A DNA stretch of 26,572 nucleotides from Phycisphaerae bacterium (GTDB taxonomy: Bacteria; Planctomycetota; Phycisphaerae; UBA1845), in contig JBGTDB010000324.1 of assembly GCA_041748515.1 (NCBI GenBank), positions 1 to 26,572 of the forward strand, written 5' to 3'. The number at the start of each line of letters is the position of its first letter. Position 1 is the first letter of the stretch. This document shows positions 14,610 to 26,007 of this stretch, in pieces. The notes beneath the pieces were generated by a model. That model saw only the letters and a list, made by a program, of their open reading frames with translations. It was not told the origin of the DNA and ran no database searches. Both the position numbers and the translations under genes were made by a program.

Positions 14610-17036
14610 ATGTCCGATTGCCCGCGATTGGAAGACCTCGAGAACTGGCAGCAGGGCGCGCTGCGCGCCGATCAGGCGGTTCGCCTTCAAGAACATCTTT
14701 CAACTTGCCCGACTTGCCGAGCGACCTATGGCAATCGGTTCGACAATCCGATCGACCGAAACGAAACGGTTGGCATGGAATCAAAAGTATTACCGGCCGG
14801 GGGCGCACCGGCCGCTCCAAATCTTCCCAACCTGATTCGTTCGGATCAGGATGATCTGATACCTCATGGCGAGCAAAGCGGCAGTTCTCCCAAGCGCCGA
14901 GCCGAAAGCTATTACCCGCGTATTGAAGGCTATCGCATCACCGGCGTGCTCGGCCAGGGGGGCATGGGCGTTGTCTATCGCGCAGTTCAGGCGAAGCTGA
15001 ATCGGGCCGTGGCGCTTAAGGTTCTCCCGGCGATGATCGGGAAGGCCAGCCCATCGGCCGTCGCCAGGTTCCGCAGAGAAGCCATCGCCGCCGCCCGGCT
15101 GCATCATACCAATATCGTTCCGATTTATGATTTTGGCGAGTCGCGAGACGCCTACTTTTACGCGATGGAGCTGATCGAAGGACGGCCGGTCAGCGAGCTG
15201 GTCAAGGTCTTCGACGCCGCGAGAATCTCTCAGGCCACGCCCGTCAAGGTGGAGGAAATCGTTCGTCAGGCGGTTTCGGGCACCGCACCGGGTGAGATTC
15301 GTGCGGAGTCCATTTCCGGTACGCGCATCGACGCGCCGATCGGCACGTCGTCCAGCGGCCGAGGCCGGGCCTATCACCAGCAAGTTGCCCGGTGGATCGC
15401 TGACGCGGCCGAGGCGCTCCACTATGCCCACGGCGAGGGCATCATTCACCGCGACATCAAGCCGGCGAATCTGATTCTTTCCACGGACGGGCGGATCATG
15501 ATTACCGACTTTGGGCTGGCCAAGGACGTGGACGAAGATTCCGTCACCGTCACGGGCGCGCTGCTGGGCACGATGCGATACCTTAGTCCTGAGCAGGCCA
15601 TGGCCAAGCGGCTGCCCATGGATCATCGGACGGATGTTTTTTCGCTCGGCGCCACGCTCTACGAGCTGCTTTGTTTTCAACCGGCCGTCCCCGGAGACGA
15701 CGAGAAACAGATCCTCACCGCCATCATCACCCGCGACCCGGTGCCGCCTCGCAAGATTCTGAGCGGCGTACCGGTGGAATTGGAGACGATCTGCCTGAAG
15801 ACGCTGGAGAAGGCGGCCGATGCCCGATACCCAACTGCCCGGGCATTAGCCGAGGATCTGAAGCGGCATCTAAATGACTTGCCGATCGTCACCCGAAAGC
15901 CGGGAATCATCCGCCGCACGAGCAAATTCGTTAAGCGTCATCGGGCGATGAGCGTGGGCGTTGCGGCGGCGGTGTTGCTAAGTGCGGCGGCGGGGCTTGG
16001 GATTCGTGAGCGAGCCCGAAGCATTGCCGAGAAAGTTCAGACCCATCTGGCGCAGGCGGAATCGTTTCTGAAATCGAACGATTGGGACAATGCCATAAGC
16101 GAGTATCGCCTTGCTTTGAACCTCGACGCGAGAAACGTCCGCGCGATGGGGAACCTGGCGCTGGGGCTCAAGGAAAAATACGACCGCCTGCCGGAACCCG
16201 ATTCGACGATACTGGACGAAGCGCTCTACTACTGCGAGCGAGCCATTGAATGGACTTCACATCACGAAGAGGAAGTCGTCAAGCTCTACAATTCCTATGC
16301 TGATATTCTGGTTCTGAAGGAGCGCTTTGATGAAGCCAAGGTCGCCCTCGAAAAAGTATTCGGAGCGGACTTATCCGCGCCTTTTGCCAAATACAATCTG
16401 GCGGGTATCGACTTCCTGGCCGACGATCCGGTAACGGCTGAGCAGACCCTTTCCGAGGTCGTGAATAGTTTTAAAGAGGAAGGGGTCAAGCCCTATTGTC
16501 ATGCATGGTGGGCGCTGGCCATCGTACAACATTACCAAGGCAAACCCGATGCGGCCGACAGCATTGAAAAGGGTATTGATTGTGGCGCCGAAAACCAGGC
16601 GTGGTTCCACCTGGTCAGTGCCCGAGTGAAGCTGACGCTGGATGGACATCTCGACGCCCGCCGTGCTTTGGCTCATGCGATCGTCGCCGACGAGAACGAA
16701 AGTCGCAAGAATCCTCTTTGTAAGCGCTATCTTGCACTGGCGTATCTTCGAAACGGGGAGCCCGCCCAGGCATTGCGCGAGGCTGATCGGGCCATTGAAT
16801 TAGACGACCTTCCGACACCGAATCTGCTGATCAAGGCATTAGCCCTTTTGGAACTCAGACAACCGGACGATGCCCAGCGCGTCTTTCGACAGGCGGAGCG
16901 GGCCTGGCCGGAAGAGTTGAAGGAACCCGGCACCTTCACCCGCCGACGGCACATCGGGCGGCTGTGGTTCGAATCGGCCAACGAACACGACAAGCTCCGC
17001 ACAGAGTTCAAAGCCGCGCACCCCATTCCCGATTAG
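14610..17036 (+). CDS. Ser/Thr protein kinase with N-terminal zf-HC2-like finger, TM helix and TPR region
   Basis: HLSTCPTC, GQGGMGVVY, VALK, HRDIKPAN, DFG, GTMRYLSPEQ, ARY. Hydrophobic VGVAAAVLLSAAAGLGI is followed by helical repeats. Confidence 0.92.
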   Translation: MSDCPRLEDLENWQQGALRADQAVRLQEHLSTCPTCRATYGNRFDNPIDRNETVGMESKVLPAGGAPAAPNLPNLIRSDQDDLIPHGEQSGSSPKRRAESYYPRIEGYRITGVLGQGGMGVVYRAVQAKLNRAVALKVLPAMIGKASPSAVARFRREAIAAARLHHTNIVPIYDFGESRDAYFYAMELIEGRPVSELVKVFDAARISQATPVKVEEIVRQAVSGTAPGEIRAESISGTRIDAPIGTSSSGRGRAYHQQVARWIADAAEALHYAHGEGIIHRDIKPANLILSTDGRIMITDFGLAKDVDEDSVTVTGALLGTMRYLSPEQAMAKRLPMDHRTDVFSLGATLYELLCFQPAVPGDDEKQILTAIITRDPVPPRKILSGVPVELETICLKTLEKAADARYPTARALAEDLKRHLNDLPIVTRKPGIIRRTSKFVKRHRAMSVGVAAAVLLSAAAGLGIRERARSIAEKVQTHLAQAESFLKSNDWDNAISEYRLALNLDARNVRAMGNLALGLKEKYDRLPEPDSTILDEALYYCERAIEWTSHHEEEVVKLYNSYADILVLKERFDEAKVALEKVFGADLSAPFAKYNLAGIDFLADDPVTAEQTLSEVVNSFKEEGVKPYCHAWWALAIVQHYQGKPDAADSIEKGIDCGAENQAWFHLVSARVKLTLDGHLDARRALAHAIVADENESRKNPLCKRYLALAYLRNGEPAQALREADRAIELDDLPTPNLLIKALALLELRQPDDAQRVFRQAERAWPEELKEPGTFTRRRHIGRLWFESANEHDKLRTEFKAAHPIPD

Positions 17037-17190
17037 CCAGAACTTTTCACCTGACATTACCGCAGCAAACTGGTAGTTTAATTCCTAGGTCAAATCGCAT
17101 TAGAACATTGAGATAATTTCAAGTTGATTGTTGAGCCGAGAGCGACGTTCTCGACTTGGTGCATGAGTTGCTACGTTCGGGAGGTGCGTG

Positions 17191-17393
17191 ATGCTGAAGA
17201 ACCGTAATGAATCGCGACTCGCCTTCGCGATGTCGCTCGTCTTTGCCTGCTTGTTATCCACTCGACTATTCGGGGCGGATTGTTTCTGGATCCAATCGGA
17301 CGGCGGGTCGACGACTCGCCGCGGGCCGCCGTCGGGTTCAACGACGGCACCGGCAATGCCCTCTACGTCGGTGGGGATTTCTTGCATACCGGC
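17191..17393 (+). pseudogene. 5' stump of a secreted beta-propeller-type protein (frameshifted, truncated)
   Basis: GGAGG, ATG and signal peptide ...CFWIQSDGG. After a frameshift near 17305-17307 it continues VDDSPRAAVGFNDGTGNALYVGGDFLHTG, then similarity stops. Confidence 0.6.
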
Positions 17394-17990
17394 CGCGAGC
17401 CGATCTCCACCGGGGCTCAGTGCAACGGATCGAACAAAGCCACTGACGTAGGGAACAGGAATAAGTTCCTCCGAGTCAGGTGGCCAGAGGGCCGGCGTGC
17501 CCTCGATGGCAGCGGCGAGCACGACACGCCCGTCATCGGCGACGGCCATTCGTTCGATCACGGTTCCGGCGCGATCGGGTCGGACCGACTGCGCGCCCGG
17601 TTTCCGGAGGTCCCGTCGAAAGATGACGTCGCGTTGAGCCCAAACGATCACCTGCCGATTGGGGCTGACAACCAGGCGATCGGCATCGGGCAGCGGCAGC
17701 CGCGCGAAGGCATCCGGGGACGCGGAATCCGCCAAATGCGACAAGTCCAGATCGCACGCCACGTCGGCGGACGATGAGGCCGCATAAGGAGTTCCGTCGG
17801 CCGCATCCCACCCCATAGCTTCCTCCCCAATACAGGCAGTGATGCGCAGGCTGTTTCCCTCGCGCCGAAAAGCGAGGTTCCTGGCGTCGCCGCCCGCGGG
17901 CAGCGCGATTGCGACCAGGCAATGATCCAGTGCCACCGACAGGTAAAACCACTCCCAACCTCGATGGGATTATGATGCGCCGCACTTCGA
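17388..17990 (-). pseudogene. Internal remnant of a planctomycete-type kinase-WD40 protein
   Basis: Frame reads SKCGAS*SHRGWEWFYLSVALDHC..., i.e. the RGWEWxYL linker with an in-frame stop. WD40-like ARNLAFRREG...WDAADG and VRSVALSPGGDRLAAG follow. No kinase domain and no real start or end. Confidence 0.65.
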
Positions 17991-17992
17991 CG

Positions 17993-19042
17993 TCAGGGCA
18001 GCGAGTACCAGGTCGAGCGGCCCCTGCCACCGCGCTTCAGGTGGCCGGCACCGGTGAGTTCGGCGAGCCTTTTCTTTATCGTGCCTCGGGGTGCTTGCGT
18101 TACGCGAATGATGTCGGCGACGTGAATCTGGCCGTACTCCGTCGCGAGGTCTAGGATGGCTACGGCGAGCTCCGGCATGGTCGAGCGCATGATTCTCTCG
18201 CGCTCGACTTTGGTTTCCAGGTTGCGCTTCTGCCGCTGGAGCGAATTGAGAAAAAACATCAGCCACGCAGACCAGTTGGGGGCCTTTTTCTTGAGCGTGC
18301 CCTGCGTCCGGCGAAGAGCCAGGTAATAGCCCTCCTTGTTCTGCTCAACGATGCTTTCAAGCGAACTGTAGGGCACGTAGGCGTAGCCGTTTTTCAAGAG
18401 GAGCAAGGTGGTTAGCGCGCGGGACAGGCGGCCATTGCCGTCCTGGAACGGATGAATGGCGAGAAAGACGACCACGAAGACCCCGATGGCGACCAGCGGG
18501 TGCAGAGACTTCTCCTTCATCGTCATGTTGAACCAGGCGACGAGTCTTTCCATTTCACGGGGCGTGTCGAAGGGAGACGTGGTCTCAAACACGATGCCCA
18601 CCGATTTGCCCCTGTGATCGAAGGCCTCGACGCTGTTGGGGAATTTCTTGTATTCGCCGCGATGCCGGGCGTCCTTGGTGGAGTGCTTAAGCAGCATGCC
18701 GTGAAGCTGCTTGATGTAGTTCTCGGTGACGGGGATGGCGTCGTAGTTGGAGAACACCGTCTCCATGACCAGGGCGTAGCCGGCGACTTCCTGCTCGTCG
18801 CGCGTCGCGAAGGACTTGGCTCTAACCCGGCCAAGCAACGCCTCGACCTGCCGGTCGGTAAGCTTGGCCCCCTCGATCCGCGTCGAGGAGCCGACGCTCT
18901 CGATGGTCGCGATTTTGCGCAGCTCGCGGAGCCGCTCCGGGGCGAGCTTGCCGATGGCTCGCCAAGCGCCCTTGAACTCGTCGATCTCAGCGATGAGCGA
19001 GAGTATTTCCTGGGTGATGGTGAGCGAGCCGGTGCGGATCAT
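17993..19042 (-). CDS. fic: Fic-family protein (class II-like, C-terminal wHTH), copy 1
   Basis: HPFQDGNGRLSR active motif, inhibitory-type SSTRIEG, C-terminal HTH. Start MIRTGSL at 19042 is preferred over 19060. Confidence 0.92.
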   Translation of the reverse strand: MIRTGSLTITQEILSLIAEIDEFKGAWRAIGKLAPERLRELRKIATIESVGSSTRIEGAKLTDRQVEALLGRVRAKSFATRDEQEVAGYALVMETVFSNYDAIPVTENYIKQLHGMLLKHSTKDARHRGEYKKFPNSVEAFDHRGKSVGIVFETTSPFDTPREMERLVAWFNMTMKEKSLHPLVAIGVFVVVFLAIHPFQDGNGRLSRALTTLLLLKNGYAYVPYSSLESIVEQNKEGYYLALRRTQGTLKKKAPNWSAWLMFFLNSLQRQKRNLETKVERERIMRSTMPELAVAILDLATEYGQIHVADIIRVTQAPRGTIKKRLAELTGAGHLKRGGRGRSTWYSLP

Positions 19043-19073
19043 AGCCACAAATATAGCCAATTAGAGCCAATTA
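19042..19073 (-). repeat. Three tandem ~10-bp repeats upstream of Fic copy 1
   Basis: Minus strand TAATTGGCTC, TAATTGGCTA and TTTGTGGCTA, the last overlapping the ATG. An opposite-strand GTGGCTATAT lies at 19111-19120. Confidence 0.7.
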
Positions 19074-19130
19074 AGCAAGCCGGGACTTTCGGCCCCAATT
19101 GGTCACGAAAGTGGCTATATCATCGCCTTC

Positions 19131-19342
19131 ATGAACGCAACGTAAACGATCGGATCGCTGGCAAGGGCAGCACGCACTCCGACCTCGACGGTGCGATACT
19201 ATGAGCGTTGCGGCCTGTTGGAACCACAATCGCGCAGCCGTGCCAACTACCGGGTGTACGACGAGCACGCGCCGTGCGGCGATCGCATTTTGTTCGCTCC
19301 GCACAAGCTGCAGGTTTACGATGTACAACGGGCTTCACGGTG
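19131..19342 (+). pseudogene. MerR-family regulator pseudogene
   Basis: MNAT*TIGSLARAARTPTSTVRYYERCGLLEPQSRSRANYRVYDEHA, then a frameshift to VRRSHFVRSAQAAG..GFT. Contains a stop at codon 5 and a frameshift. Confidence 0.8.
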
Positions 19343-19576
19343 GGTTGCTCTCCGACGCACACGTTGCACACGAGCACGACCGGCGAGAAATTCGGCAAAG
19401 CGCGACGTAGCCTTTCCGAAGAGGAGTTGAGCAAGCGGCCCAACCAGATCGCCCGGCTGTTCGAGCAATCCAGCCACCCGAGGCGGCTAGTTTCCGCGGG
19501 TATTCAAGCAGGGTCACTTTGACGTAACGGGCGGCAAAAATATGGCGAGCAATGAACTACGCGGTACCATTCCCCT

Positions 19577-21402
19577 GTGGCCCTGCGTGAATACAAACGA
19601 AAACGCAATTTCGATGTGACCAGCGAGCCGGGCGGTTCGAAGAAAAGAAAAACAGCGCAGCACCTGTTCGTAGTGCAAAAACATGCGGCTACCCGCCTGC
19701 ACTACGATTTCCGCCTGGAGTTCGATGGCGTGCTAAAAAGTTGGGCAGTGCCCAAAGGGCCGAGTCACCGCAGCTTGCAACCCGCATGGACGTGGTGCCC
19801 GAAGGCGACGATTGGATCCACGAAATCAAACTCGACGGTTATCGAATCCTCTGCGTCCTGGATAACGGGAGCGCGCGCCTTCTATCGCGCAATGGGTTGG
19901 ATTGGACAGATAAGTTTCCTGAAATCGCCAAGACCGTAACTTCACTGGGCGTCAATGGTGCGATCATCGATGGCGAGGTGGTGGCGCTAAATCCATCCGG
20001 TGTGCCGGATTTTCAGGCACTACAAAACCGGCTGAAAGGCACCACGGAGACACCATTGGTGTACTTTGCATTCGACCTAGCCTTCTGGGAAGGCTACGAC
20101 TTACGACGCGTAACGCTGATTGAGCGGAAGAAGGTGCTCAAGAAGTTGATCGCTTCGTTTGGCAAGGGTCCCTTGCGTTACAGCGATCACATCGCCCGCG
20201 AAGGATCGAAGATGCTGAAAGAAGCATGCCGGCTCGGCGTGGAAGGCATTGTTTCGAAGCGCGCGGACAGCCTCTATCTCTCAAAGCGGAACCTTGATTG
20301 GATCAAGATCAAGTGCAAGAGAGGTCAGGAGTTCGTAATCGGAGGCTTCACTGACCCGAGCGGCTCCCGCCAATCGTTCGGGTCGTTATTGGTTGGATAC
20401 TACGACGATAGCGGCCACCTACGTTACGCGGGGCGGGTCGGCACCGGCTTCGACGACGCTGGTTTGACCCAGCCAGGGGCGAAACTTCGGAAGCTAGAAA
20501 TCCCAAAGAGCCCATTCGTCGACGCCCCCCGCAGCCGGGGTTTTCATTGGACCCGCCCTAAGCTGGTTGCAGAAGTCGAGTTCTCGGAAATGACGCGAGA
20601 TGGGAAGTTGAGGCATCCCGCTTTCAAAGGTTTGCGACAAGACAAGCCAGGCAGGGAAGTTGTGCTAGAAGAATCCTCGGCAGGGCGAAATGGCAAGGCG
20701 AATAAAATCTCCGCCGCATCATTCATCGAATCTCCTGGTAAGCGAGCGCCTTCAACGAAACCTCTTTCGAACAACCTGGTCGCGGGCGTCTCCCTCACGA
20801 ATCCTGACAAGGTCTTTTACCCCGACGACGGTGTGATGAAGCGCGACCTTGCCCTTTATTACGAGGCCCTCGCTGAAGTGATGCTTCCACATGTTGCAGG
20901 CCGCCCATTGATGATCGTTCGGTGTCCCGAAGGCATTGGCGGAAAGTGCTTCTACCAGAAGCACCTGAACACTACGCTCCCTCCGGCGTTTCGCGGTGTC
21001 GAGATCCAAGAAAAGAAAACTCGTGGAACTCACCTTGTGCTCGATGACGTGCGCGGACTAGTCTCGCTGGCGCAGATGGGGGTTCTCGAAGTCCATACCT
21101 GGGGCTGTCGGGCAGATCAAATCGAACGACCGGATCGACTCATCTTTGACCTCGACCCATCGCCGGAGGTAGCGTGGGACGCCATCGCCGAGGCGGCCTT
21201 CTTGTTACGCGCCCTACTATCAGAGCTGGATCTCAAGAGTTTCGTTAAAGTTTCGGGGGGTAAAGGGCTACACGTCGTGCTTCCAATCGAACGGCGATAC
21301 ACGTGGGAACATCGCCCCGCCAGACTTACGCACTGGCTTACGCAAAGGCATGGCCGGGTATGGCCGGAAAGGTCCGGGAAAGGCACTTTGTACAGATCGT
21401 GA
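19577..21402 (+). pseudogene. ligD: NHEJ LigD remnant (PE stump, ligase+OB, truncated polymerase)
   Basis: PE motifs [35 protein letters not shown] end at 19765. Out-of-frame junction to PQLAT at 19768. Ligase motifs [27 protein letters not shown]. Pol motifs FDLDP and SGGKGLHV; similarity ends near 21310. Confidence 0.88.
21325..21368. repeat. Tandem short repeats left of att copy 1 (arm-site-like)
   Basis: CTTACGCA at 21325 and 21337; ATGGCCGG at 21350 and 21360. Confidence 0.55.
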
Positions 21403-21419
21403 AACCGAGGCCGGGAAAG

Positions 21420-21450
21420 TCGTAACCTTCGGTGCCACCGAAGGTTACGA
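21420..21450. repeat. Perfect 31-bp palindrome (one central base); terminator or protein-binding dyad
   Basis: TCGTAACCTTCGGTG-C-CACCGAAGGTTACGA, ending 10 bp from the att core. No strong U-tract on either strand. Confidence 0.8.
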
Positions 21451-21460
21451 ACGATCCGAA

Positions 21461-21484
21461 GAATGGAGGCGGGGGGAATCGAAT
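21461..21484 (-). repeat. att core copy 1: 3'-end fragment of tmRNA (ssrA), or tRNA-Ala
   Basis: Minus strand A-TTCGATT-CCCCC-CGCCTCCA-TTC gives T-loop, 3' T-stem and acceptor strand with U70/A73 alanine-type identity. The 5' T-stem is absent. Identical to 24109-24132. Confidence 0.85.
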
Positions 21485-21616
21485 TCGACACCGAAAGGCG
21501 GTGAAAACCGCGTTTTCCAACCAAAAAATGCGGATTTGCCGAGGGTTACGCGAAAAGTCGACCTGACCACTTGCGACCCATGAAGACTCTTCAAAACCAT
21601 CAGAGACCCCTTTTTG

Positions 21617-21634
21617 CGTGTACCTATCGTGTAC
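21617..21634. repeat. Tandem CGTGTAC x2 (arm-site-like)
   Basis: cgtgtac-ctat-cgtgtac, 11-bp period, about 130 bp inside att copy 1. Confidence 0.55.
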
Positions 21635-21709
21635 TTCGACCGACGCCTCGCTGCTTTCCCATGCTCGTCCCGGTGGCCTGAAAGTGTTGTTCCCCTGAGA
21701 GTTCCAGCG

Positions 21710-21749
21710 GAATTGGCTACTCGCCGATGAATCGGCTATTATTCGGCTA
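21710..21749 (+). repeat. Three ~10-bp repeats upstream of Fic copy 2
   Basis: GAATTGGCTA (21710), GAATCGGCTA (21729), TATTCGGCTA (21740). Confidence 0.7.
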
Positions 21750-21769
21750 CTGGCCACGAGAAAAAAACG

Positions 21770-22816
21770 ATGTCGACCCTGAACCCTGAACGCCTGCACG
21801 ACTTGTCTATACCGTTGAGTACGAGTTGGCTGCTGTCCGCCTGCATGGAAGCCAAGGGCAAACAGGACCTATGGATCCGCCAAAAGCCAGAAGTGTTGGA
21901 GGCCCTGCGCGAACAGGCCATCGTTCAAAGCGTCGAATCATCCAATCGGATCGAGGGCGTAACGGTTGACCGAGATCGCCTGCGGCCCCTGGTGCTTGGC
22001 CAGGCGAGGCCGCGCGATCGCTCGGAGGAAGAGGTGGCCGGTTATCGCAAGGCGATCGATTGGGTGTTCACGCGAAAACGTCGAGTAGCCATCGAGCCGC
22101 ACGTCATTCAGCACCTTCACGCCCTGGCACAAGGTGGAATGTCGGGGGACGCTGGCAAGTGGAAGCGCAGGGATAACGAAATCATCGAGATTCTGCCGAG
22201 CGGCGACCGCCGCGTACGCTTCAAGCCCACTCCGGCCAAGGCAACGCCGCAGGCGGTGGCGAAACTCTGCCGTGACTATCACGCCGCTTGTGAGGGAGAA
22301 CCAACGCCTGCGCTGATCGCCGTCGGAACCTTCGTGTTCGATCTGCTTTGCATTCATCCCTTTCGCGACGGCAATGGCCGCGTGTCGCGATTGATCACGA
22401 CCATGCTGCTGTTGGAACAGGGATTCGAGGTGGTCCGGTACATCAGCCTCGAACGACTCGTTGAGGAAAGCAAGGCAGATTACTACAGCGTTCTGGAAAG
22501 ATGTTCAACGGATTGGCACGCGGGCAAGAACGAGATTGTTCCGTGGTGGAACTACTTCCTCGGAACGATTCGGCGTGCGTACGATGAGTTTGCGGCGCAC
22601 GTGGAATCCTCCGACCGCCGCTCAGCCAAGGGTGACCTCGTACGCCGAGCGGTCCTGGATCAGGCGGGGCCGTTCTCACTGGCGGAATTGCACGGCCAAC
22701 TTCCCGCCGTCAGCGTCCAACTCGTCAAGAGAGTCCTGGCGGAAATGAAGGCGGCGGGCGAGGTTCAGCTCAAGGGCCGAGGACGCGGAGCACTTTGGGA
22801 ACGAATCTTGCAATAA
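21770..22816 (+). CDS. fic: Fic-family protein (class II-like, C-terminal wHTH), copy 2
   Basis: HPFRDGNGRVSR, SSNRIEG, EEEVAGY, and C-terminal HTH ...GRGRGALW. Confidence 0.92.
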   Translation: MSTLNPERLHDLSIPLSTSWLLSACMEAKGKQDLWIRQKPEVLEALREQAIVQSVESSNRIEGVTVDRDRLRPLVLGQARPRDRSEEEVAGYRKAIDWVFTRKRRVAIEPHVIQHLHALAQGGMSGDAGKWKRRDNEIIEILPSGDRRVRFKPTPAKATPQAVAKLCRDYHAACEGEPTPALIAVGTFVFDLLCIHPFRDGNGRVSRLITTMLLLEQGFEVVRYISLERLVEESKADYYSVLERCSTDWHAGKNEIVPWWNYFLGTIRRAYDEFAAHVESSDRRSAKGDLVRRAVLDQAGPFSLAELHGQLPAVSVQLVKRVLAEMKAAGEVQLKGRGRGALWERILQ

Positions 22817-22843
22817 CAATGGCTGCTCGAACGAACCAGTTAG

Positions 22844-23362
22844 ATATGCATCGACGCCGAGTGCGTGGGGCGGCAGCGCCGGCGTGTGCAAGATCGACGT
22901 CAAGCCGTAGCCAAAAAGAAGAACCATGAATTCGGACGGCGTCAGAAGCTGATGGAACACGCAAACCGTTGGCACGACGCCCAATGCATTCGCGACTACC
23001 TTTCCGCCTTGCAGGTGGCCATCGACGCGGAGCGGGTACATCCCGTCGACGAAGCAGGCTTCCGCGAGTGGTTCGACTGGGCAACCTAGTACGCCGATTC
23101 GATCGACCCGATCCTTCAAGCACCTTACCCGGATGAAGAGCACGAAGATCCCGTCCACACGCCCATGACGGAGCTTAACCTCACGGCCCGAGGGCGCGCC
23201 GTCATTGCCGAACTGGAAGTTGGCGATTCGGACGAACTGGCGCGGTTGCCGTTGGGCCGGATCAGTGAAGCCTGCGGCTACTATGACTCGGCAACCCGGC
23301 AGGAGATCCAACGCGTACTGGAGGGCTTGGGCTACGCGACCGCGAAGTTCGAGGACCACTAA
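22844..23362 (+). pseudogene. 5'-truncated gene with internal TAG; C-terminal RNAP alphaCTD-like domain
   Basis: ORFs 22865-23089 and 23165-23362 are one frame: ...WFDWAT*YADSIDP...MTELNLTARGRAVIAELEVGDSDELARL...TRQEIQRVLEGLG. Confidence 0.55.
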
Positions 23363-23602
23363 GGCTGGTGACGGGCACGATGGACGACCCCCGCGATGCT
23401 CGGAGGCACGGGCCGCCCCACCCTAACACGCAGGAATGCGAAGCCTTCAAAATGAGGGAAAGCGCGGTTACATTGAGGGTGGCGTACCTGGGGCCGGCCC
23501 ACGATGTCGGAGGTGGAGGGTAAGATGCAATCCGGCACGAGGGTCCAACGCCGAGTCGCGTGACCGAGGTTCGTGGAACGTGGCCACTCCATGAGGGCAA
23601 GA

Positions 23603-23716
23603 ATGGGAACGGAACGGATTAAGACCTTCGTTTACCTCAACGCCGAGAAATCGAGCGTCTACCGCGCGGTTATGCGCGTCTTCACGGAGGCAAAGGCGAG
23701 ATTCGCGTTGCAACTG
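23603..23716 (+). pseudogene. jetA: 5' stump of TIGR02677/DUF2397 protein (type II Wadjet JetA)
   Basis: MGTERIKTFVYLNAEKSSVYRAVMRVFTEAKARFALQL resembles, from recall, the F.Y..AE....YRA.MR.F..AK.RF.L.L N-terminus. Similarity ends after 38 codons. Confidence 0.65.
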
Positions 23717-24108
23717 CCGACCGGTGTTTGCCACCACCTTTTGCTGGTGACACGCCGGCTCCCGATCCTCTTTATATTCTCATTTCTTGTCAGCCGGCTT
23801 TAACCGGGCTTGCGCGTGCTCCTCCCGAAGCGGCGTTGCTCGGCCACCTTTCGATGCACGACTTGTAACACGGTACCGATCAAACGAACTTTCCAATCAC
23901 CGCTTTCAGCCGGCCATGACCCTCGATTGGCTATTCAAGACAAGGTCTTCAATGGTCTCGTATGGTCTGAAGCGTGAGGGAGTTGCGAATCCCCCCGCCC
24001 TTCGGCGTAAACACCGAAAAAATGGGGATATCTGACCCTTCATGAGGCGAGCACACGCATTTCTTGGTGTGCGAGAAACTCATAACCTATTGTAAATAAA
24101 TGACTTAC

Positions 24109-24132
24109 GAATGGAGGCGGGGGGAATCGAAT
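24109..24132 (-). repeat. att core copy 2: 3'-end fragment of tmRNA (ssrA), or tRNA-Ala
   Basis: GAATGGAGGCGGGGGGAATCGAAT, 24/24 identical to 21461-21484. Confidence 0.85.
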
Positions 24133-24338
24133 CTTCCTCGAATTCCTCGGAAAATAAGCCCAATTCTAAATCGCGCGGCACAGAATCCGGCACACTTAGC
24201 AAGGCTTCGCATCCGGTCGCAGCCCACGGAACCGAGTTGCAAATTGTCGTTGATGCTTGGTCATCGCTACCGGCTGCGCTGCGCGCACGCATCCTCGGAA
24301 TGGTCGAAGGCGCGACCGCCGCACGGGAGGAGGATTGA
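24111..24338 (+). CDS. att-initiated small ORF with C-terminal VVDAW..LP...RA.IL.MV helical motif
   Basis: ATG lies within the att core. The stop is 3 bp before the next ATG and the last codons supply its GGAGGAGG RBS. The N-terminal half may be non-functional. Confidence 0.45.
   Translation: MEAGGIESSSNSSENKPNSKSRGTESGTLSKASHPVAAHGTELQIVVDAWSSLPAALRARILGMVEGATAAREED
24176..24194. repeat. Tandem CGGCACA x2 (arm-site-like)
   Basis: cggcaca-gaatc-cggcaca, 12-bp period, 43 bp inside att copy 2. It also encodes GTESGT. Confidence 0.55.
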
Positions 24339-24341
24339 TCG

Positions 24342-24716
24342 ATGGATTGGTCAATGCCCGACATCCCGGCCAAGTATCGCAAGCTCTATGAGCGAGCCCG
24401 AGCCGGTAAGCCCAAGGCGGCGATTCGAGCGCATTGCCTGATGTGCGTGGGCTGGGAGCCGGCTGAAGTCGAACGCTGCACAGCCACGGGCTGTCCGCTC
24501 TACTCACTCCGAAACTTGGCCGCTCAGGCCGCGACCGAAGCGGGAGATAGGGCCAAACGGCGGGAAAGGGCCCTCAAGGCCGGTCATCGACCCCCGAAAC
24601 CTGCCCCAGTAGATGGGCACGGTGCCCAGGAAGTCGGCCCGATTTTGAACGCTACGGAACCTCTTCGTGGCAAATCCTTGCCGGAACCCGTTTTGGAGCA
24701 AACTGGCATGAAATGA
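24342..24716 (+). CDS. Small phage-type Zn-finger-like protein
   Basis: AIRAHCLMCVG...VERCTATGCPLY..R (C2-C2) with a strong RBS. Confidence 0.75.
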   Translation: MDWSMPDIPAKYRKLYERARAGKPKAAIRAHCLMCVGWEPAEVERCTATGCPLYSLRNLAAQAATEAGDRAKRRERALKAGHRPPKPAPVDGHGAQEVGPILNATEPLRGKSLPEPVLEQTGMK

Positions 24717-24717
24717 A

Positions 24718-24761
24718 AAACCCGCTCCGGTCCAATTCCACTCGGACACCGGGGCGGGTTT
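24718..24761 (+). promoter_or_regulatory. Hairpin immediately upstream of the Prim-Pol start
   Basis: AAACCCGCTCCGGT-16 nt-ACCGGGGCGGGTTT, 14-bp stem with one G-U pair in RNA. Confidence 0.55.
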
Positions 24762-24765
24762 GGGA

Positions 24766-26007
24766 ATGACGGCGATGAGTATACGACCATGTACGACCAA
24801 AGACCAGTCCGCGCGGCATGCACCCCGGAAATCCAACGAGGCGAGTCTGAAAACGGAAGGCCTTTCCTACCTTGCACGGGAATGGTCCGTGATCGCAGTC
24901 AAGGACAAGAAGGCGGTCGGCCGCTGGAAGGAATTCCAGTCACGCCGGCCCAGCGTCGAGGAACTCGAAACCATGCTCGGCGTGGCGGGCGTGACCGGAA
25001 TCGCAGTGATCTGTGGTCCGGTCAGCGGCGGATTGACCTGCCGCGACTTCGACGATCCGGCCGCATACGAGCAATGGCGGCAAGTCCATCCCGACCTGGC
25101 CGCTACATTGCCAACCGTGAAAACGGGACGGGGCTACCACGTCTACTTCCGCAGCACAGTGCGGTCGATTCGGCACCTTGATGATGGCGAACTGCGAGGG
25201 AACGGCTGCTGTCTGCTGCCACCGTCAATTCATCCGTCGGGGAGTCCGTACGCCTGGATTGTGCCGCTTCCCGCGGCTGAATTGCCGTTTGTCGATCCGG
25301 TGCAATCCGGTCTTGTACCCGTTGGGACAGAGAGGACAGAGTGGACAGAGTGTACGGAGAAGGACAGAGTAACTGAAAGCAATGGTGGGGTTTGTCACTC
25401 CGGTGCTACGCAACACGTCACACGCATTCGCAACGGAACCGATATTCGTGATCTCGAAGAGCGCATCGAGCAGGCGATCCGGGCGACCCTGCCTCAGCGT
25501 CCCGGCGAACGAAACCGGCGTATCTTTGACCTGGCGCGGCACCTGAAAGGGATGCCGGAGCTTGCGGGGGCCGATCTACGAGACCTGCGGCCCATTGTGG
25601 GGCAGTGGCATTCTCTGGCGCTCTCGGTGATCACGACCATGCCATTCGAAGATACCTGGGGTGACTTCCAGTATGCCTGGGCGAATGTTCGATTTGCCAA
25701 GGGGGACGATCCCGTGCAGACCATTTTGCAACGTTCCGAAGGGCGGCCTTTCCCAGTCGAGGCGGACCTTTACGAGGCGGTCAATACCAGACGACTTCTG
25801 CGGTTCTGTCGCGAGTTTCAGCGAGAAGCCGGCGAGAACCCCTTCTTCCTGTCATGCCGAAAGGCAGGCGAACTCTTTGGGATGGATCACCGAACGGCTG
25901 CACGACGGCTCAAGGCAATGTGCGGGGACGGCCTGCTGGAGGTCGTCGAGTCCGGCGGAATGCGGGCCAACCGCTATCGGTATCGTGGGATTTTGGATGA
26001 GGCATAG
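24766..26007 (+). CDS. Bifunctional DNA primase/polymerase (Prim-Pol) with PriCT-like and C-terminal HTH regions
   Basis: K.....W..FQ, GIAVICG..SGGL..RDFD, VKTGRGYHVYF, LRG....LLPPSIHPSG..Y.W, GERNRRIFDLARHL, and C-terminal SCRKAGELFGMDHRTAARRL. Start is 24760, 24766 or 24775. Confidence 0.88.
   Translation: MTAMSIRPCTTKDQSARHAPRKSNEASLKTEGLSYLAREWSVIAVKDKKAVGRWKEFQSRRPSVEELETMLGVAGVTGIAVICGPVSGGLTCRDFDDPAAYEQWRQVHPDLAATLPTVKTGRGYHVYFRSTVRSIRHLDDGELRGNGCCLLPPSIHPSGSPYAWIVPLPAAELPFVDPVQSGLVPVGTERTEWTECTEKDRVTESNGGVCHSGATQHVTRIRNGTDIRDLEERIEQAIRATLPQRPGERNRRIFDLARHLKGMPELAGADLRDLRPIVGQWHSLALSVITTMPFEDTWGDFQYAWANVRFAKGDDPVQTILQRSEGRPFPVEADLYEAVNTRRLLRFCREFQREAGENPFFLSCRKAGELFGMDHRTAARRLKAMCGDGLLEVVESGGMRANRYRYRGILDEA

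Follow-up and report, generated by a model that had tools for sequence, protein, structure and literature searches.

Two displaced ssrA 3′ ends mark a probable tandem array of islands in a planctomycete from a hot spring

The cis-mobilisable elements (CIMEs) of the ICESt1/ICESt3 family are found at the fda locus in Firmicutes, where their mobilisation was shown experimentally. In Dehalococcoides, islands were found in tandem at ssrA, the gene of the transfer-messenger RNA (tmRNA); they are bounded by 20-bp repeats, cross over in the T-loop and include members without an integrase, which were read as cis-mobilisable (McMurdie et al., 2011; PMC3146451). In the Islander survey (Hudson, Lau and Williams, 2015; PMC4383910), enrichment as a target was highest for tmRNA, and 125 arrays of two or more islands in tandem were recorded. 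According to the accounts of IntP/IntX of Mx8 that are given in two later papers, the attachment site of the element (attP) lies inside int, so that integration gives the gene a new 3′ end which excision restores (Tojo, 1996; Magrini, 1999; cited in PMC4383910 and PMC6070905). In the archaeal SSV-type “suicidal” integrases the attachment (att) site also lies within the integrase gene, which is split on integration (PMC8371274). In our study, we analysed contig JBGTDB010000324.1 of a Phycisphaerae bacterium (C324; 26,572 nucleotides), which is here called the window and is an entire contig of a metagenome-assembled genome (MAG) of 554 contigs and 76% completeness from a hot-spring planctomycete. 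Two identical displaced ends of ssrA in this contig delimit a short unit, island B, and the beginning of a second one, island A.

The locus resembles the Dehalococcoides islands in its T-loop crossover, in a single base just upstream of the repeat that consistently differs from ssrA, in an att repeat that overlaps the recombinase gene and in the lack of an integration module in some members. The Dehalococcoides islands, however, belong to Chloroflexota, use the serine recombinase DsiB and carry reductive dehalogenase genes, whereas the present locus belongs to a planctomycete, with a tyrosine integrase as candidate enzyme and with Fic and Prim-Pol genes as cargo. The signature used by Islander, an intact tDNA and a displaced 3′ fragment in the same orientation, is the one followed here, but array members in that survey need their own integrase, which is absent from island B, and the intact tDNA is not on contig C324; no integrase domain was found anywhere in the window. 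As in the CIMEs, a short att-flanked unit without recombination or transfer genes stands in tandem with an integrase-bearing element of the same site, here on metagenomic evidence. The likeness to Mx8 consists of an attP within the int coding sequence and of a catalytic domain that is kept intact. It differs in that the targets here are ssrA or various tRNA genes and that the predicted severed tail carries the conserved motif DPDLAxVVxAWPxLPxAIRAxILAMV. A close relationship to Mx8 in sequence was not found; the 12 phage hits listed for the candidate integrase (tblastn) were all at or below 29% identity, with no myxophage among the matches listed. In the SSV type the split leaves the gene inactive, with its catalytic domain separated, whereas here only a non-catalytic C-terminal tail is lost; the statement in a review that gene-splitting integrases are archaeal only concerns the inactivating SSV type (PMC8371274).

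The exact 24-nt direct repeat GAATGGAGGCGGGGGGAATCGAAT was found at positions 21461-21484 (R1) and 24109-24132 (R2), both displaced ends lying on the minus strand. No additional copy with three or fewer mismatches was present in the window, a looser scan (22-mer, six or fewer mismatches) returned R1, R2 and a single match at chance level, and none of 100 dinucleotide shuffles of the window produced even one such repeat. On the minus strand the repeat contained A, followed by TTCGATT (T-loop), CCCCC (3′ strand of the T-stem), CGCCTCC (3′ strand of the acceptor), the discriminator A and TTC; the acceptor strand carried U70, opposite G3. This base-by-base reading bore out the sequence-only reading of the window, which had described two identical 24-bp repeats whose reverse complement starts in a T-loop and runs through the T-stem into the sequence that follows. 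The leading base was A in both copies as against G at that position of ssrA, so that the identity with ssrA starts at the first T-loop base and comprises 20 nt of the gene, from the T-loop to the discriminator (here called the core), and 3 nt downstream.

The single tmRNA gene of the genome (C476:3698-4026) was found to reach the last base of its contig and to stop in the T-loop at ...GGGACGGGGGTTCGATTCCC. This end overlaps the repeat by 10 nt and is the only contig end in the assembly that does so. Among 28 relatives of the same family or order, the tmRNA ended in ...GGGGGTTCGATTCCCCCCGCCTCCA in 19, which is the C476 end continued by the repeat, with the core identical at 20 of 20 nucleotides; the other nine showed one to three base differences, mostly compensating changes in the T-stem. 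When C476 was joined in silico to either repeat copy through the overlap, ARAGORN returned a canonical tmRNA of 346 nt with the tag GNSYAMAA, and on the window itself it found no tRNA or tmRNA gene. From the tmRNA ends of the relatives, the canonical join and the differing ends of the tRNA-Ala genes (given below), the repeats are the 3′ ends of ssrA, as the sequence-only reading had proposed; the genome's own ssrA breaks off inside this very sequence.

The observation was confirmed as real and correctly read. R1 and R2 are very probably attR-type junctions that arose when mobile elements integrated site-specifically at the 3′ end of ssrA, and together they would mark a tandem array. A tyrosine integrase would recombine the ssrA end borne by the element with the chromosomal gene, the copy of the element would restore ssrA, and the former 3′ end would be displaced to the far side of the element. 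Repeated integration would give, on the ssrA strand, the order ssrA, island A, R2, island B, R1 and a flank with a LigD gene, R1 being the outermost junction, beside the LigD flank, and R2 the junction of the two islands. Of the two islands, B is the closer to the old flank, and A would have been added later on the ssrA side. Since island B contains no integrase, it would depend on one supplied in trans, presumably a related enzyme. Island A would be a small Prim-Pol element whose int frame crosses attP; its integration would cut off a conserved tail of ~75 residues, which is left at R2 and which excision would restore. The link from C324 through C380 to C476, the order of events and any present-day activity are inferred. 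An intact minus-strand ssrA and an integrase had been expected to the right of the window; the break of C476 inside the core and the integrase on C380, whose relatives adjoin ssrA in two genomes (G018 and G009), are consistent with this. Units bounded in the manner of islands were recovered, with the Fic gene, gene stumps, the Prim-Pol gene and the severed integrase tail, and island B was found alone in other metagenomes. The claim of at least two successive integrations stands as the simplest history and not as the sole one, entry as an already composite element being another.

Island B (21485-24108; 2,624 bp) is flanked by the identical R1 and R2. Its sole intact gene (21770-22816, plus strand) encodes a Fic-family protein of 348 aa (PF02661, E 9e-14; phrog_5978, E 3e-42). 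An exact look-up of this protein returned no record; its nearest homologues, at 86-89% identity, had only the gene and ~100 nt upstream of it in common and stood in unrelated contexts without core or arm, and are therefore uninformative on island B as a unit. The Fic gene was followed by an open frame (22865-23362, plus strand) that is interrupted by an in-frame TAG at 23090-23092 and had no family match in Pfam or PHROGs, and by the stump of a DUF2397 gene (23573-23803, plus strand), which matched PF09660 at profile positions 1-30 of 483 (E 6.6e-6, under the gathering cut-off). Domain searches of the open reading frames (ORFs) of island B found no recombinase or integrase domain. With att sequences at both ends, no recombinase or transfer genes and only the Fic gene, the broken ORF and the stump between them, island B has the composition of a CIME.

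Logan contigs (contigs, not reads) of four public runs were aligned to positions 17000-26572 of the window. Run X1 is from a hot spring and is probably the source sample, X3 is another sample of the same study, and X2 and X4 are soil runs of a different study. The soil runs were found to cover 21461-24127 and essentially nothing on either side, the LigD gene being uncovered in both. One X4 contig of 587 nt contained ~23947-24000, 108 unaligned bases (the length of 24001-24108), the core and 21485-21886, a head-to-tail junction such as a circle or a tandem copy would give. This is good but not conclusive evidence that island B moves as a whole unit. The variant contigs of the public runs break at 24000, the edge of a degenerate inverted copy of the ssrA T-arm and acceptor (23976-23999, plus strand), which forms the inverted repeat I3 with 24116-24139 (83% complementary). 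The ssrA-proximal end of island B (24079-24108, minus strand) is AT-rich, contains an imperfect hairpin and resembles the 3′ flank of ssrA in relatives; the core together with this stretch showed 81-97% identity to the ssrA 3′ flank in six of them (G008, G025, G005, G007, G016, and G011). Two further loci contained similar pieces. At L015 (G000:C217:2400-2520), a cluster of GTAACTGGGTT repeats surrounds a 35-nt stretch similar to window 24076-24110, with no tRNA gene there. At L041 (G008:C35), a hairpin like that of island B and a stretch like its arm are followed, ~150 nt 3′ of ssrA, by a degenerate second ssrA end, GGGGTTTTCGTTCCCCCCGCCTCGAC; this looks like the remnant of an integrated attP without cargo.

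The other end of island B, beside R1, contained a conserved non-coding stretch of ~150 nt (arm B, a candidate P arm; 21485-21640, minus strand). A copy on contig C282 (17785-17955) showed 80% identity to window 21464-21634. The far end of arm B carries the direct repeats CGTGTAC at 21617-21623 and 21628-21634, with 11-nt spacing. The module of core and arm B, 172 nt in length, was present in nine of 100 other genomes of the family, from eight genera, and in the alignment the two repeats were found to covary, GTACACG changing to GTACCCG in both together in five genomes. Such a pattern would be expected of arm-type integrase sites that co-evolve, and the two repeats are candidates for sites of this kind. 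The integrase P0004, 79% identical to that of C380, reads VEAGGIE through the ssrA core and continues directly into arm-B-like sequence, which points to arm B as the far arm of the attP used by this integrase family.

Contig C380 contained a helix-turn-helix (HTH) gene and a tyrosine integrase gene that is cut by the contig end, the reading frame breaking off at ...EKAAQNPAQ. The final 20 nt of the contig, GCGGCACAGAATCCGGCACA, with two copies of CGGCACA at 11-nt spacing, recurred at 24175-24194 (plus strand) of the window, at a distance of 42 nt from R2, with no other occurrence in the genome. The shared 20-mer reads AAQNPAQ in the integrase and RGTESGT in the ORF that begins at R2; as the reading frames differ, the conservation is at the DNA level. 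Read in this way, the CGGCACA pairs are probably arm-type sites on both arms, and the 20-mer is the candidate arm-type site of island A. A homologue of the C380 integrase (34% identity) was found immediately downstream of ssrA and convergent with it in G018 and G009, its ORF entering ssrA antisense by ~62 nt (...WRRGESNPRPAT...). An integrase like that of contig C408 lies directly downstream of ssrA in G028, and a displaced ssrA fragment was found 15 kb downstream in G013. The C380-type integrase family gave 4,630 hits in Planctomycetota, most members having 430-459 residues. A motif that reads the T-loop antisense (G-F/I/L-E) was present within the last 40 residues in 95 of 120 family members.

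The ORF at R2 (24111-24335, plus strand; 75 codons) starts with an ATG inside the repeat, and searches of Pfam and PHROGs gave no match for it. The integrase P0003, 79% identical to that of C380, reads the ssrA core as MEAGGIE, in the same frame as this ORF. The 40 homologues of the ORF at R2 were nearly all ORFs of 40-150 residues; they start with the antisense T-loop, contain the motif RGTESGT or GGAESGA and end in the conserved motif given above, and the T-loop motif was in frame in 24 of 39. Two integrases, P0043 and P0073, continue through the core into such a tail. The contig of P0073 (L067; 8.3 kb) has ends that overlap by 30 nt and is circular, with an HTH_17 gene, a primase gene and no tRNA gene, and it is therefore taken as an attP form. 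Both states of an Mx8-type gene were seen among the relatives and, for C408, in this genome: a free-form int ORF that runs through the core into a coding tail in P0073 and P0043, and an integrated form that ends in antisense tDNA in the integrases of G018, G009 and C408, the end of the candidate island A integrase lying beyond the end of contig C380. From this continuity of frame in its homologues, the ORF at R2 is predicted to be a C-terminal tail severed from an integrase gene in which attP lies within the coding sequence. Complex prediction of the C380 integrase with the tail ORF gave a score of zero and a partner pLDDT (predicted local distance difference test) of 45, which is no evidence either way.

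A sister case was found at tRNA-Glu in the same assembly. On C408 (4046-5577) an integrase ORF runs antisense through tRNA-Glu(TTC) and ends in ...PPRGFEPLSPA*. On C143 (1508-2222) a displaced tRNA-Glu fragment was followed in frame by the same conserved tail and by the gene for the 124-aa protein that also occurs in island A, the frame PPRGFEPLS being common to this locus and the C408 integrase. The island at tRNA-Glu on C143 is flanked by AIM24 and Lgt genes.

Island A (24133-26572) is partial and runs off the contig end, and was recognised by its gene content. Positions 24266-24758 showed 92% identity to C143, beside the displaced tRNA-Glu fragment. The tail ORF was followed by a gene for a Cys-rich protein of 124 aa (24342-24716, plus strand), with no match in Pfam or PHROGs and an 84% identical copy in C143, and by a gene for a Prim-Pol replication protein of 415 aa (24760-26007, plus strand; PF09250, E 2e-15; phrog_1156, DNA primase). 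Beyond this gene, ~560 nt to the contig end contained no clear genes. In 25960-26572 the summed contig depth in X1 and X3 was two- to fourfold that found elsewhere in the window, the contigs break at 26011, and one X1 contig links 24758 to 26011, omitting the Prim-Pol gene. The right end of the window is probably common to other elements in the sample, which would account for the contig break.

The repeats themselves may be explained in other ways. A tRNA-Ala gene, with its G3:U70 acceptor, could be their source in place of ssrA, as U70 of the acceptor strand, read from the sequence, is common to tRNA-Ala and tmRNA; however, the genome has three tRNA-Ala genes, which end in CGTCTCCA, CGGCTCCA, and TGGCTCCA, respectively, and have different T-arms, whereas the tmRNA matches at 20 of 20 positions in 19 of the 28 relatives. 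This origin was rejected and has next to no chance of being right. The core and arm B could also form the gene of a structured small RNA with a tRNA-like 3′ end and not an att site, the 172-nt non-coding module being kept in 10 genomes and ending in T-arm and acceptor sequence. A conserved RNA fold was unsupported, as the RNAalifold consensus was just -4.4 kcal/mol with an unfavourable covariation term (+0.74); in addition, the covariation lies between two direct repeats, which is a signature of protein binding, and the 5′ acceptor strand is absent from the module. We rejected the structured-RNA explanation as highly improbable. It is just as improbable that the contig is a chimera assembled through a short repeat. 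The MAG is fragmented into 554 contigs, but separate Logan contigs cross R1 (X3; 21402-21579) and R2 (X1, probably the source sample; 22493-24276) with zero differences.

Several observations weigh against an array at ssrA built by integration. The MAG is incomplete, as given above, and may be a mixture of strains; contig-end overlaps of 12 nt or more were found neither between C324, C476 and C282 nor with any other contig, and C380 is likewise unlinked, so the adjacency and orientation of C324 relative to ssrA (C476) and to the C380 integrase are inferred. Island B lacks an integrase, and no integrase tail makes up its ssrA-proximal end. The case for its autonomy comes from contig-level evidence in a single comparison, in which the X4 copy was diverged, and exact-pattern scans of JGI metagenome contigs found neither the LigD flank joined to the repeat, as in an empty or occupied site, nor the repeat joined to arm B. 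A third copy of core and arm B (C282:17785-17958) occupies part of the 490 nt that separate a 1634-aa FG-GAP/dockerin gene from a TPR gene, and is either an orphan attR or a piece of the same array. In G182 (L089; C41:138341-144537), a 247-kb contig carries, mid-contig, two modules of core and arm B separated by 4.7 kb. The core of the second has decayed, and tRNA-Gly(CCC) and a convergent integrase come after it; this 94%-complete assembly yielded no tmRNA gene. From the C282 and G182 copies, modules of core and arm B can be orphaned from ssrA. The window could accordingly hold an orphaned array, in which integration at ssrA produced R1 and R2 and the block has since moved, by rearrangement or inside another element, leaving no ssrA at its right. 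The C282 copy without ssrA beside it and the two G182 modules favour such a history, as do G152 and G198, where the modules and ssrA are on separate contigs. We consider it unlikely, because both copies in the window are perfect over 24 nt, as against the decayed cores of the orphans in G182, G197, G151, and G224, the break of the ssrA contig falls precisely within the core, as several different following contexts would produce, and the tail ORF and the genes of island A are intact. Somewhat less unlikely, although still not favoured, is a single entry, in which islands A and B arrived as one composite, accreted element, or island B is the deletion remnant of a complete element, so that the array does not record two integrations in this lineage. 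The gene stumps of island B (the broken ORF and the DUF2397 stump) would fit this, and accretion with joint mobilisation of tandem ssrA islands is known in Dehalococcoides (PMC3146451). Against it, runs X2 and X4 contain island B but not island A, and arms A and B are unrelated in sequence. The reading of R1 and R2 as junctions of integration into ssrA, in tandem, is therefore preferred.

Read as such an array, the locus is a clean and checkable set of islands at a tmRNA gene in Planctomycetota, and the mobile elements of this phylum have received little study. The locus brings together a mini-island without an integrase that is seemingly mobile by itself, arms with covarying arm-type repeats and an integrase gene that would be cut and restored by its own recombination, and it explains why, in these genomes, many small ORFs labelled “hypothetical” and integrases with odd C-termini are annotated next to genes of tRNAs and tmRNA. 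The underlying principles are all known; the value lies in annotation and in a possible test system, and not in discovery. A more far-reaching proposal, which we regard as improbable, is that the partner att decides the tail of the integrase: recombination with R2 would give the 75-residue tail and free island A, whereas recombination with R1 would give a dead end of 13 codons and free islands A and B together. In that case the Fic mini-island would be a hitchhiker, exploiting and perhaps damping the integrase of its neighbour and moving between planctomycetes of hot springs and soil.

The flank to the left of the array contained a LigD gene with ligase and Prim-Pol domains (19741-21402, plus strand; PF21686, PF04679, and PF01068), outside the array. 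The spacer between this gene and R1 (21403-21460) carries a 31-nt palindrome (21420-21450; 97% self-complementary match). Hairpins of this type were also found 3′ of ssrA in relatives, and the palindrome is likely a shared terminator together with the native downstream flank of ssrA. In one relative (L091; G222:C232:2305-3929), a LigD homologue was found 650 nt upstream of ssrA on the same strand, with 48-59% identity in the Prim-Pol domain, whereas the LigD gene of the window faces the displaced ssrA end. In 28 other relatives, no LigD gene was found in the 1.5 kb upstream of ssrA, and in 20 of these none was found within 20 kb or less downstream. The proximity in G222 may be a coincidence, a rearrangement or LigD as island cargo, and it was not used as evidence. 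The window also contained two diverged Fic genes, at 17993-19060 and 21770-22816, on opposite strands and 2.7 kb apart, with 42% identity over 94 residues; the left one, outside the array, has an extra DIP2311-like C-terminal domain.

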